A stretch of 64,000 nt of DNA from Microcoleus sp. (GTDB lineage Bacteria > Cyanobacteriota > Cyanobacteriia > Cyanobacteriales > Microcoleaceae): the NCBI GenBank assembly GCA_042408215.1, contig JAYFMW010000026.1:162020-226019 (forward strand). Reading direction: 5' to 3'. The number at the start of each line of letters is the position of its first letter. The stretch's first letter is position 1. The position numbers were made by a program, and so were the translations under genes. Below the pieces are notes generated by a model. It had not been told where the DNA came from. It worked only from the letters and a program-made list of their open reading frames with translations, and ran no database searches. Below are positions 36,000-50,318 of this stretch, one piece after another.

Positions 36000-36329
36000 A
36001 CTGGATAGCCTTCCGCATCAACCTTGTGGCAAACCCATGCGGATACAATTTTACTCCTTCAACTTGCAGGTAAACCTGCAAAAACCCCAGTTCCAAAAGT
36101 TTCGCAGCTAAACCCAGAATAGCTGACCTTAGCTCGCATCTGCTAGAGGGTCGAGCCATCAACGAAACCGAGATACCCCGCTTAAATGCCTCCTCTACCT
36201 GTTCTCCCCAATCCGGGTCATTTACCCCCAAAATTGGCGTTGATCCAACTGTAGCACATCCAGCAAAACCTCTCTCTTCGCATGGGGAAGCACCGGAAAC
36301 GGATTGTAGGAAGACAAAGCACACGATCG
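36000..36329 (-). pseudogene. Degenerate C-terminal fragment resembling a DpdJ-type helicase
   Basis: RS.ALSSYNPF..LP...RE.LLD.L then DPDW.EQV..A..AIL.LA...E.GFL.VY..VEGV..AIQ across a frameshift; recognised from memory only. Confidence 0.4.
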
Positions 36330-36564
36330 CACCTCCTCACCCTCACCTTTCTACAACCTTCTCCGATCGCCTGCTTTAAAGGTTTTTGAAGTGCGATCGC
36401 CCTCCCATTCAACTTCCTGCACTCCATCATACTTTCAAGGATTCTCGCTGCTTCTCACTACAAGGAACTCCATGAGCAGTATGAGGTCTAACATCAGGCG
36501 GTTGAAGCCCCAAAACAATTGATTTAGCCGGAATTCCCGCTGCAACTAACTCCTCAGCAATCAG
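36323..36564 (-). pseudogene. xisI 3' fragment plus downstream flank (junction 1)
   Basis: Homologous to 48072-48314. Confidence 0.88.
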
Positions 36565-36952
36565 CGGCCAAAATGTGAACAAGGTGGAAACTGCTGCGGA
36601 TTTGTTTCACAAGCCGACTGGGATTCGGATTTTCTGTACCCAGGAGCGGAGTCAGTTGCAGAATAAGGAGCGGGCGATGCAGATTTTGCGGGCTAAGCTT
36701 TATGAAATAAAGTTGCGCCAGCAGCAGGATGAGGTGAAGGAGCTACGTTTGGGGCAGGTTGGTACTGGTTCGCGATCGGAAAAAATTCGCACCTACAACT
36801 ATAAGGATAATCGGGCTACCGACCACCGTTTGGGGGAGAATTTTTCGCTCAATAGTGTTTTGGAAGGGGATATTGAGGGGATTATTCAGACTTGCATTTC
36901 TCAGGATCAGCAGGAACGTTTGGCCCAGTTGGCTGCTTCTACTTCTAATTGA
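36565..36952 (+). pseudogene. prfA: Duplicated 3' third of prfA (copy 2)
   Basis: Homology begins inside the GGQ codons (reads SGQNVNK); no 5' part. Confidence 0.92.
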
Positions 36953-36968
36953 TGGGTTGATGGGGAAC

Positions 36969-37053
36969 TTAGGCGCATTTTTGGGTGTGCCTTTGTTCTC
37001 TGATGACTTGACGGATGTGGTTGAGGAGGGCTTCCCAAATTGCATCGGCGATC
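36969..37053 (-). pseudogene. 3' fragment of the 138-aa hypothetical gene
   Basis: Matches 32531 onward and stops at GCGATC (37048-37053). Confidence 0.85.
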
Positions 37054-37091
37054 ACTCTTTGGGAATTGGGGCGAGCGATCGTGCCTAAATT

Positions 37092-38282
37092 TTACCGAAT
37101 TGGAACAAACCCTGCTTCTTCTACTAACTTTTGACCTTCATCGCTCAAGAGCATATTGGTATAAGCAACTCCCGCTTGTTCATCCAATTTTCCATCCTGT
37201 TTGATGACAACAAAAAGTCGTCGCGTCAACGGGTAAGTTCCATCAGTAAAAGCAGTTTTATTAACCGCTTTGCAAATTTGATCGATACAGGGAGACACAA
37301 AACCTGAACTCGCTACCTTGCCAAGAGGAAGAAGGTTTATCATACTTTGATTGATTACCTCTGAAGCTGTAGCATACCCAATACCACCACGAGTCACAGC
37401 AACCTTTCTTATTGATTCAGTAGTGTCTCTCACCTCTTGCACATTCGATCCAAATGGTTGTTTATCTAACACTTTTTCAGAAAAGTAATCAACTGTACCA
37501 CCAGCACTAAGATTACGGCTAAAGGGAGTAATTTCCTGGTCTGGCCCTCCTACATCTTTCCAGTTTTTGACTCTTCCAGTAAAGATATCCTGCCCTTGAG
37601 CTAAGCTAATCCCTTTTAAACCTTGATTAATCAATTCAGGATTGACATAAAAAGCAATACCATCAATAGCAACAGCTACTTGTTCAAGTTTAAAATTTCG
37701 CTTTTTAGCCAGTTCAAACTCATCGTCTTTTACAGATCGCGAAGATTCAGCAAAACTCATTTGTCCCTCAATCAGCATTTTAATACCTGTTCCAGATCCA
37801 GGCTTGCCATTAGGCGGCTCAGTATAGCGCAACTGAAATTGAGGATGTGTCTTATTAATAGCTGCAACAATGACCGGAGAGCGCAGAGGTGCAAAGGTTG
37901 TAGAACCCCCATAGTTGAATATTCCATTTGGGACATTAGGAACATTAGCCAGACTAGGATAGGTAGTGAACGGGGCGCTACTCGGTGTAACAGGCGTTGT
38001 GGGGTTAGGGATGGGGCTGATGGGTGAAGCTGTAGGAGTAGGTGATGTGGGGTTAGGGATGGGGCTGATGGGTGAAGCTGTAGAAGTAGATGATGGCGCT
38101 CCAAATAGCTTGTCTTTAAATAAAAAATAGGGTCCCCCTAACATTAAAAATACAGTTGCTAATCCCAAAACTATAGGAGGTACACCGCGTAATCTTGTAC
38201 CGCAGTAGGAACACTGATATGCTGTGGATGAATTTAATGTTTTACACTTCGGGCATTCGACATTATTAGAGCCACTACTCAT
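37092..38282 (-). CDS. Zinc-ribbon + TM + Pro-rich linker + PstS-like (PBP) domain protein
   Basis: CPKC..CSYC, hydrophobic span, YGGSTT, GSGTGI, VAIDGIA, YPLTRRLFV. Confidence 0.85.
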   Translation of the reverse strand: MSSGSNNVECPKCKTLNSSTAYQCSYCGTRLRGVPPIVLGLATVFLMLGGPYFLFKDKLFGAPSSTSTASPISPIPNPTSPTPTASPISPIPNPTTPVTPSSAPFTTYPSLANVPNVPNGIFNYGGSTTFAPLRSPVIVAAINKTHPQFQLRYTEPPNGKPGSGTGIKMLIEGQMSFAESSRSVKDDEFELAKKRNFKLEQVAVAIDGIAFYVNPELINQGLKGISLAQGQDIFTGRVKNWKDVGGPDQEITPFSRNLSAGGTVDYFSEKVLDKQPFGSNVQEVRDTTESIRKVAVTRGGIGYATASEVINQSMINLLPLGKVASSGFVSPCIDQICKAVNKTAFTDGTYPLTRRLFVVIKQDGKLDEQAGVAYTNMLLSDEGQKLVEEAGFVPIR

Positions 38283-38305
38283 AAATACCTCATAAAAATT
38301 GATAA

Positions 38306-48545: not shown

Positions 48546-48948
48546 TGTACTATTTCCTCTGTTTTTGGGTTGAAAACAACAAGACTTAGGCGGTTATTAT
48601 CTAGCAAAATTTGACCAAATTTTTGTCCTTCAAAAAGCTCCGTAAAAGCATTTAGTGGAAGTGCAAGATAAAGTTGTCTTTCTGATTCTGTCTGTTTTAA
48701 GATGTCATAGTAAAGAGTGTATTGACCCAACGCTTGCTCTAAATCTGCAACTCGCGACTCTCTGATAAAACTTTTAACTTCAACGGCTATCTTGCGATCG
48801 TTGTTCTCAGCAGCTAATAGCTGTTCGGCACCAAGATCGATAGGTTTCTCTTCGCCCAAGCCAATGGATAGGGATCGTGGGTAATTGTCCAGCCAGCCTT
48901 AATCAGAGCCTGTTTGACAACTTGATGATAAATGTCTCTTGCGGGCAC
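48533..48948 (-). pseudogene. xisH: XisH family protein, frameshifted
   Basis: 4-bp deletion at GATCGATCGA relative to the intact copy at 50712-51128. Confidence 0.85.
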
Positions 48949-49129
48949 GATCGCTCTCTTTTTCTATCCAGATCGAGACTATTATAATGTATTTCATCCC
49001 GATCGCCCAAATCATCCCCAATGCGATCTCTCACGCTTGGGAAGTGGGAAGTCTGCAACCATTAGAAGAAGTAGAAAGTGCGATCGCCCTTTTTTGCTCC
49101 ACCACACAAATATAATTTTACAGTAGCAT

Positions 49130-49352
49130 TTAACAAGCAATTTGAAGCGTCCTGGGTTCAGGGATAGATTCACCTTCTGCTTCCCAAGCTTCCAAATACA
49201 TTTCAATCACTTCTTCGCCGTTATGAATTGCTTGCTCGCGAGTTTGACCGTGAGTGCAAGGCATCACCACGCGATCGGCAAACTCTGGAATCGTGACTAG
49301 GAAAAGTCGATCTTCATGACTACCATTGAACAATCATACTATATCGACTCAT
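49130..49352 (-). pseudogene. HicB-family antitoxin, frameshifted after MSRYSMIVQW
   Basis: EDRLFLVTIPEF...THG.T.E.A..N..E.I..Y.E..E.IPEP; one extra base near 49320. Confidence 0.75.
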
Positions 49353-49368
49353 AAATCCTCGCCCCTTT

Positions 49369-49803
49369 TTAACACCATAGAAAAAAAGATTTGTCAACAG
49401 TTACATATTTCCCCAAAACTGTCAATGGCATCACATCCGCACTTCCAAGTACATCAACAGACACCCCATCTCTAATCAGAATTTTAAACACTTCATCCCC
49501 ATTTTGAACTAAGCTTGCATCTAACTCAATAACTTGACCCTCTTCCTTCAAGACACTTAATAAATCCGCACTAGATAAACGCAATACTTCCTCATTATTA
49601 CCTTTCTTAGTCAATTGATCGCCACATCTTCCAGTAGCATCAATATCAGCAACGATCCATTGATTAGGCAACTCACAATTTTGGGCTAAATATTCAATAA
49701 TTTGGGCAACTCTGGGTTCCAGTTTTTCCTGTTCCTCATAGCAGAGTGTAATTGCCCACTTTTGGCTAACATTTTGTTTGAGAGCAGAAGTTTGAGATTT
49801 CAT
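49369..49803 (-). CDS. Hypothetical protein, candidate immunity protein
   Basis: 144-aa ORF whose ATG overlaps the stop of the upstream toxin-like frame. Confidence 0.6.
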   Translation of the reverse strand: MKSQTSALKQNVSQKWAITLCYEEQEKLEPRVAQIIEYLAQNCELPNQWIVADIDATGRCGDQLTKKGNNEEVLRLSSADLLSVLKEEGQVIELDASLVQNGDEVFKILIRDGVSVDVLGSADVMPLTVLGKYVTVDKSFFLWC

Positions 49804-50121
49804 AATAGTTCCGGTATTTTATTTCTAGTAGGAGTACCACCTGTAAGATTTGGTATCCATTGATGTTGATGAGGTGGTGGCAGATGATCCGGTCGAGGAT
49901 TACCATTAGGATAGGTAGGACTGGTAAAATCTATGTCTCTCACAGGTTGCCCCAGACTGATCGAATTCTCGCATCTGATAAATCCTCTGATTATAAGTAT
50001 CCCATCTTAATTGAGAATGAGGTCCTATAGCATTCGGATCGGGTTTTGCTTCCCCAAGTCTAGGCGGTTGTTGACTTTTAAGTACAATCGTACCATCTGC
50101 ATAGCGTGAGTGGACTAACAA
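49800..50121 (-). pseudogene. Orphan polymorphic-toxin C-terminal domain (Ntox24-like), frameshifted
   Basis: PDPNAIGPH..YQMREFD..G / QPVRDIDFT...PPPHQHQWIPNLTGGTPTR; extra base in the run at 49950-49953. Confidence 0.6.
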
Positions 50122-50237
50122 TCTAGTTTCAGGTTTTTGGGAAATTCAACCTAATTATTTTATCACTTATTTTAAAAGGCGGTAGAACAAGTGCGATCAA
50201 TTGCACAACAGCAGCCTGTGGACTGATACGAGCCGAT

Positions 50238-50318
50238 GCGATCGCAAAACTCTGGAATAGTAACTAAGAAAAGTCCATCTTTATCAGACCATTGAACAAT
50301 CATACTATATCGACTCAT
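50238..50318 (-). pseudogene. 5' fragment of a second hicB
   Basis: MSRYSMIVQWSDKDGLFLVTIPEFCDR; homology is lost at GCGATCGC. Confidence 0.8.

Follow-up and report, generated by a model that had tools for sequence, protein, structure and literature searches.

HIP1 cores at a minority of DNA joints in the variable prfA/ABC-F island of Microcoleus

Do rearrangements in a genome rich in HIP1 (highly iterated palindrome 1) end at this palindrome more often than its density predicts? The question is raised by a Microcoleus locus that we analysed in a window of 64,000 nucleotides (G000:C26:162020-226019, where G000 is the genome under study and the window is this whole stretch). The locus is an island of variable content with prfA on one side and an ABC-F gene on the other; here it holds three stacked alleles. 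Its initial annotation proposed that breakpoints coincide with HIP1 cores (CGATCG) as footprints of HIP1-directed, homology-facilitated gene capture. In the available excerpts of PMC5861425 and PMC13756078 the function of HIP1 is still described as open. Counted on natural joints, cores finish a few percent of them: about 6% in the island, about fourfold above local density, and about 1% outside, about twofold, which bounds the role of HIP1. We lean, with some reserve, towards HIP1 being a microhomology that is used preferentially but passively, both in illegitimate recombination anchored by homology and in short deletions.

The motifs listed at the rearrangement ends are indeed present and mark sharp homology ends, namely ACGATCGC at 36323, 41729 and 48072, GCGATC at 37048-37053 and GCGATCGC at 50238-50245. 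Of the 14 break ends identified in the window, 5 were within 6 nt of a core centre, whereas the local CGATCG density predicts 0.7 (p 0.0003). For this comparison 11 self-alignment blocks of at least 60 nt were examined and merged to 14 break ends, with the expectation taken from local shifts; the window had been chosen for displaying the pattern, and the test is post hoc. The remaining nine break ends, which the initial annotation omitted, have no core (e.g. 33059, 33451, 34261, 34322 and 33849/43714). The coincidence therefore does exceed density, but the original list overcounted, as it took in copies, deletions and slippage. The joints and their reference sites are given below; E0, orfX and cargo 1-3 are labels coined for this analysis, and codes denote genomes (G), loci (L) and runs (X).

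36324..36403 (copies at 41730 and 48073): E0, an 80-bp spacer and recurrent joint site with three CGATCG cores, the outer arms of which pair
36323..36330: core at the joint of cargo 1 and E0; the same joint occurs in L199 and L212
41729..41736: core at the joint of cargo 2 and E0, common to L194
48072..48079: core at the joint of the MORN side and E0; in relatives a pair of cores spaced by 25 bp takes its place
37048..37055: joint of orfX and cargo 2, GCGATCAC in the window and full GCGATCGC in run X11 (37054 A>G)
50238..50245: joint of cargo 3 and truncated hicB at GCGATCGC; the native hicB site is at 49271
36559..36575 (copy 41965-41981), + strand: xisI-prfA fusion joint beside the xisI core, also in L021/L194
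48309..48322, + strand: native xisI at the fusion point, AATCAG^GCGATCGG
48831..48845: 4-bp loss in a GATC tandem of xisH, causing a frameshift, with CCAAGATCGATAGG (48831) versus CCAAGATCGATCGATAGG (51007); the intact copy lies at 51007-51025

The genus set comprises 78 relatives, or 79 genomes including G000. Island stretches from genus genomes were aligned all versus all, and sharp ends, with high identity inside (27/30 required) and no homology outside, were kept and merged to sites. Loci from metagenomes were mostly too distant and served only in pooled look-ups. A broad test, which counts break ends at most 6 nt from CGATC or GATCG, gave 42/212 sites in the first island set (24-30 expected), 30/152 in 20 further genomes (19-23 expected) and 71/378 in the pooled 70 sequences (44-55 expected). 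Control 4-mers were mostly flat, with GTAC borderline. The break profile peaks where the whole core is shared and shows no peak within the core (3, 1, 3, 2 and 4 breaks at offsets -2 to +2). This peak led us to define a sharper statistic after the profile was seen, in which the full CGATCG is shared by both partners and homology ends there. In the sharp test, 30 of the 378 pooled sites were positive with 6.9 expected (by set, 18/213 vs 4.2 and 11/152 vs 3.3), and CGATCG ranked first of the 64 palindromic hexamers. The island sets share ancestral sites and are therefore not independent. No CGATCG lies within 6 nt at 320 of the 378 sites. Events internal to genes, hand-merged from five coding references without gene-end divergence, N gaps and a 24-bp tandem unit, were at cores in 8 of 39 cases (2.1 expected, p 0.001). 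The density of CGATCG is 2.46 per kb in the genome and 2.5 per kb in the island; that of GCGATCGC is 0.70 per kb genome-wide.

Outside the island, paralog ends genome-wide gave 48/580 in the broad test (34-50 expected), which is not significant against the outside null, and 11/580 in the sharp test (2.4 expected). After pruning of the island, two mobile-element pairs and one duplicate, 7/567 were left (2.1-2.3 expected). Between-species ends outside the island, in 0.92 Mb sampled from G014 and G019, showed no excess in the broad test (17/288 vs 20) and no significant one in the sharp test (6 vs 3.6 expected), and CGATCG was found at 0 of 57 such ends inside long open reading frames (ORFs). The control AGCT reached 28 versus 17 in the between-species test, so that nulls of this kind call for caution. 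In two control regions chosen for their gap size the counts were 3/99 (0.5 expected) and, for island B, 3/140 (2.3 expected); with the same filters the prfA island gave 13/147 in the 20 further genomes (3.1 expected). None of the clean indels examined outside the island (19 and 57) was a core-to-core deletion. When all outside sets were pooled, 19 of 1094 ends were positive (8.8 expected, p 0.002). In general the effect is thus about twofold and concerns about 1% of joints.

Several further repeats outside the island also end at HIP1. At C3:284739-286498, C6:962858-970723, C8:135115-136465 and C8:287440-291030, local direct repeats of 230-860 bp end on one side at GCGATCGC; these are candidate islands. 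Near-identical elements of 1.6-1.8 kb with one end at CGATCG form the pairs C21:56360-57951/C5:441871-443462 and C26:10747-12592/C5:422236-424080, the latter of which overlaps serine-recombinase matches.

Within the island, E0 is the hottest joint site. The three ACGATCGC sites of the window are the same end of E0 with differing neighbours. E0 was found in 28 of the 79 genus genomes, and upstream of it 9 classes of neighbours occur among 30 fetched loci (of 34 matches), each joined at a core (eight classes at the first core and one at the inner core). Two E0 matches begin off-core, at positions 14 and 15. That E0 is a dispersed mobile element or an attC site was rejected, because its three genomic copies are confined to the island. 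An integron cassette array was rejected as well, as there is no linked tyrosine integrase and joints lie at both ends and in the middle of E0 (attC boxes were judged by eye).

The individual joints differ in what they record. At 48072 the long allele of relatives has two cores and the short allele one, as in a HIP1-to-HIP1 deletion; the joint fits either a core-to-core join or a 25-bp deletion between two cores, with a putative direction and a putative exact left parent. Judging by the title of a 1997 paper by Robinson, similar HIP1 excision reportedly takes place in E. coli and Synechococcus. Native orfX carries GCGATCGC at 32610 and 42453. The xisI-prfA fusion had been read as joining GGCGATC to the near match GGCGGTC. 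The fusion (36559, 41965) is AATCAG-CGGCCAAAATG, xisI is AATCAGGCGATCGG and prfA is TGCTGGCGGTCAAAAT. From this comparison, the joint is adjacent to the xisI core rather than inside a shared one, and the microhomology is 1 nt, or 4 nt (GGCG) with one G lost. The prfA alleles in the fetched loci read GGCGGC in 17 records vs GGCGGT in 23. Since the copies of the repeat that holds both fusion joints do not differ in their first 532 nt, the joints represent one event that was copied. The 4-bp loss in xisH is real, but fits slippage of one unit of a GATC tandem rather than gene capture. Among the fetched loci, 5 records have similar short xisH forms and 16 have intact ones (records not deduplicated).

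Nowhere in the genome but in the island (48177-48955 and 50356-51128) do XisH matches occur. The 4-bp loss recurs in further loci, and a 229-bp deletion in G014 ends at the xisH GATC site (L022).

The wider layout of the island comprises the following features.

31417..32514, + strand: prfA (RF-1), intact left anchor with Pfam PCRF and RF-1, in 75/78 other genus genomes
52559..54259, + strand: ABC-F ATPase gene, right anchor, in 73/78 other genus genomes
32126..36564: island allele 1, with the prfA 3' part, orfX, helix-turn-helix (HTH) genes, cargo 1, hairpin E0 and the xisI 3' part (self-BLAST blocks)
36564..41970: island allele 2, with a prfA 3' copy, truncated orfX, cargo 2, E0 and the xisI 3' part; single-unit form in run X9
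41970..48314: island allele 3, with a prfA 3' copy, orfX, an HTH pair, a 268-aa gene, an Rpn-like gene, a solute-binding protein (SBP) gene, a MORN gene and E0, running into intact xisI
36323..37053, + strand: copy 1 of a 731-bp direct repeat, starting at ACGATCGC and ending at GCGATC
41729..42458, + strand: copy 2 of the 731-bp direct repeat (self-alignment)
34323..36322: cargo 1, 35.5% GC, no CGATCG in 2.0 kb
37054..41728, - strand: cargo 2, genes for a PstS-like binding protein and a tubulin-like protein, one CGATCG in 4.7 kb
49365..50237, - strand: cargo 3, two unnamed ORFs, no CGATCG in 0.9 kb

The GGQ codons of prfA mark the start of each island allele, and its end lies in xisI. The prfA-orfX and E0-xisI blocks, 240-1750 bp at 88-99% identity, flank the cargoes, so that long homologous anchors are present; the two copies of the 731-bp repeat are 98.6% identical overall. 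Both anchor genes with differing content between them were found in 15 of 20 further loci. Replacement-type variable islands sit between conserved genes, and the conserved flanks and the cargo differing per genome are shared with this locus; here, in contrast, three alleles are stacked in tandem via a copied fusion joint. The window joints are genuine and not assembly errors, because the sister genome G014 (L021) carries the xisI-prfA fusion and the cargo-2 joints and because contigs of other runs bridge the window joints (one of them, X4, perhaps the source sample). In run X11 one contig carries both cargo-2 joints plus the fusion. In run X9 native prfA leads straight into the joint of orfX and cargo 2, a one-unit arrangement such as a donor allele would show. 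Read-level data consisted of contigs only, in which rare excision products are invisible and uncovered parts uninformative. Of the 79 genomes searched, just this one and G014 have the three alleles stacked (32126-48314), an arrangement that leaves two prfA 3' fragments.

This layout fits a one-arm, homology-anchored gain of alleles, and in that respect the proposed homology-facilitated gene capture is retained, although several of the listed cases arose otherwise. Incoming island alleles, probably from related strains, would be anchored on one side by ordinary homologous recombination, and the other side would be finished at whichever short match exists. HIP1, which occurs every 400 bp and is denser in island spacers, could supply many such GC-rich matches, and two nearby cores could also promote short deletions; a HIP1-specific enzyme would not be required. 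The genome has one ComEC-type gene. Illegitimate joints of this kind probably prefer GC-rich matches. Because both partners are HIP1-rich, CGATCG is frequent among identical short matches. It is contained in 2-11% of identical 6-10-mer pairs genome-wide (1 Mb sample), 2-17% around island breaks and 6-43% of the GC-rich pairs around island breaks. The HIP1 share among microhomologies overlaps this passive-supply prediction. Among 80 clean island indels, 51 have 0-2 nt of microhomology and 12 have 6-14 nt, 2 of these 12 holding CGATCG; a 24-bp and a 347-bp indel show the core-to-core pattern. At 18 of the 30 shared-core sites the match continues beyond the core, which is closer to the 0.37 per base for two pairing HIP1 sites than to the 0.25 for a random partner. 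Background accounts for about 7 of the 30, and the others still lean to HIP1-HIP1 pairing. The term 'HIP1-directed' was not borne out; the excess concerns a minority of joints, and passive supply overlaps the HIP1 share.

Several findings weigh against a purely passive role. The xisI-prfA fusion keeps no core. CGATCG is found in 10/30 of the three-way overlaps of 6-14 nt and in 9/14 of the GC-rich ones; this is above the passive range, although many of these overlaps are not true microhomologies and the set is contaminated by ancestral stretches between neighbouring breaks. The excess is equally strong when the partner has no core within 600 nt (8/145 vs 1.9) and when both have one (22/212 vs 4.6). 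The cargoes 1-3 are HIP1-poor (0, 1 and 0 cores). Donors of these cargoes at the joints were not found among the 78 other genus genomes, which leaves the donor-side microhomology at the window joints putative; the ends of cargo 2 were matched in 1/78. Finally, the genome has a core-specific insertion activity, which is described below.

In its layout the process resembles the homology-facilitated illegitimate recombination of Acinetobacter baylyi, Streptococcus pneumoniae and Pseudomonas stutzeri (excerpt of PMC2884548), with one long homologous arm, one short illegitimate joint, foreign cargo gained and fragments of anchor genes left behind. Unlike in those systems, the short match in the island is often a palindrome iterated genome-wide, cargo donors were not found and the process is deduced from sequence. 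HIP1-linked deletion and recombination as such are long known. In HIP1-flanked deletion (smtB, Gupta 1993; Robinson 1997) a crossover between two cores leaves one, as at 48072 and in the 24-bp and 347-bp indels, whereas the cases described here are natural, recurrent and genus-wide, include replacements by unrelated DNA and often involve CGATCG only and not the octamer. HIP1 has also been noted near a natural inversion (excerpt of PMC9239245). The printed recombination evidence that we found consists of single laboratory events or transformation gains, and no count of natural breakpoints at HIP1 was found in the literature searched, which omits most subscription papers.

The strongest alternative, which was the idea of the initial annotation and which we consider unlikely, is that a HIP1-specific nuclease, nickase or recombinase, perhaps guided by methylation, starts or resolves the joints, with HIP1 as a low-efficiency universal attachment site. 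In its favour are the persistence of the excess with core-poor partners, the missing donors of the window cargoes, the nine partner classes that meet at the cores of one hairpin and two gene-internal breaks that share a phase (32614 and 51016). Site-specific recombination at HIP1 in Synechococcus PCC 7002, as described in an excerpt of PMC4390886, points the same way. According to an excerpt of bioRxiv 2024.09.10.611283, homologous HIP1 raises transformation up to 7-fold, and more than 100-fold if methylated. The joints of HIP1 plasmid recombination in PCC 7002 (Akiyama 1998) likewise lie at HIP1 or its inner core; the island differs in having no fixed cut phase and no recombinase, and most of its joints avoid HIP1. 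A fixed crossover position, as in site-specific recombination, was not found, as matches run 0-4 nt past the core. The flat profile within the core, the large majority of coreless sites and the weak effect outside the island also speak against a dedicated activity. No tyrosine or serine recombinase was found in the island, and there is no PF00589 match on contig C26; elsewhere in the genome there are 5 tyrosine and 26 serine family matches. An electrophoretic mobility shift assay (EMSA) found no HIP1-binding protein (excerpt of PMC13756078), and deletion of addAB in PCC 7002 leaves the HIP1 effect in place (excerpt of bioRxiv 2024.09.10.611283). Unlike a Chi-like hotspot, which is oriented, non-palindromic and read by RecBCD/AddAB, HIP1 is palindromic.

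Support for a dedicated activity also comes from 61 short SDR5-like inserts (SDR, small dispersed repeat) at CG^ATCG across the genome, possibly made by the same activity. They form a 24 nt family of 38 copies, 35 of which are followed by ATCG, and a 21 nt family of 23 copies, all preceded by CG. Both empty and filled sites are seen in relatives, and the insert enters between G3 and A4 of HIP1 and duplicates nothing; some core-specific insertion process therefore acts in the lineage. Inserts of this kind also occur at the right core of E0 in L208, L211-L214 and L216; there are none in the window. SDR5 repeats are likewise inserts of 21-24 nt between HIP1 positions 3 and 4, but they are reported only in Nostocaceae, with none found outside this family according to an excerpt of PMC5861425, and our likening is by placement and not by sequence identity. 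As SDR5-like inserts outside Nostocaceae, they offer a handle on any core-specific enzyme. That one HIP1-specific cut-and-join activity in Microcoleus both places these inserts and finishes one-arm DNA uptake seems quite unlikely to us; if true, HIP1 would be a genome-wide attachment site for cross-species swaps of island modules, its long-sought function. Exact sites at which passive microhomology can be separated from a dedicated enzyme are E0, orfX 32610 and hicB 49271.

It is distinctly improbable that structure or retention explains the pattern, either because palindromic cores form hairpins with fragile feet in single-stranded DNA or because selection keeps spacers whole, so that joints pile up at HIP1 ends. 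The outer cores of E0 do form a stem (z -4.6 as single-stranded DNA, with 0/200 shuffles as good), this spacer is the hottest site, and the effect is strongest in the spacer-rich island. However, gene-internal events are enriched too, shuffled versions of another two-core spacer (48996-49092) fold as well as the spacer itself, and no terminator-like site was called at E0. Chance combined with selective listing in a HIP1-rich genome is very improbable: the choice of the window, the statistic sharpened post hoc, the non-independence of kin and sites, the AGCT control and control island B all speak for it, but the excess recurs in the island, gene-internal, pruned paralog and pooled outside sets. 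That cores arise or persist at joints afterwards, by a mutational ratchet to CGATCG such as the HIP1-creating repair proposed by Elhai (excerpt of PMC4390886) or by alignments ending at the last conserved core, is hardly credible, as unrearranged parents already have the core at 32610, 49271, 48315 and E0, the 37048 joint decayed away from HIP1 here, and the filters demanded identity inside and no homology outside.

The remaining observations concern neighbouring features of the island. Tandem XRE-type HTH genes (33084-34250 and 42950-43714) differ in number and order between relatives, and their joints are without HIP1. A second orfX copy begins after inserted cargo at 32516, directly past the prfA stop, in at least 10 related loci; this duplication is recurrent, and that end of it has no HIP1. 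The ORFs of 71 aa and 144 aa at 49369-50121 (- strand) have no Pfam or NCBIfam match, and relatives of them occur in 5 genomes at other places; judged by eye, their layout may recall an orphan toxin-tip and immunity pair. The named organisms nearest to one island gene are Microcoleus and Tychonema. Many intergenic 7-bp tandem repeats lie at 13281-29539 of the window.

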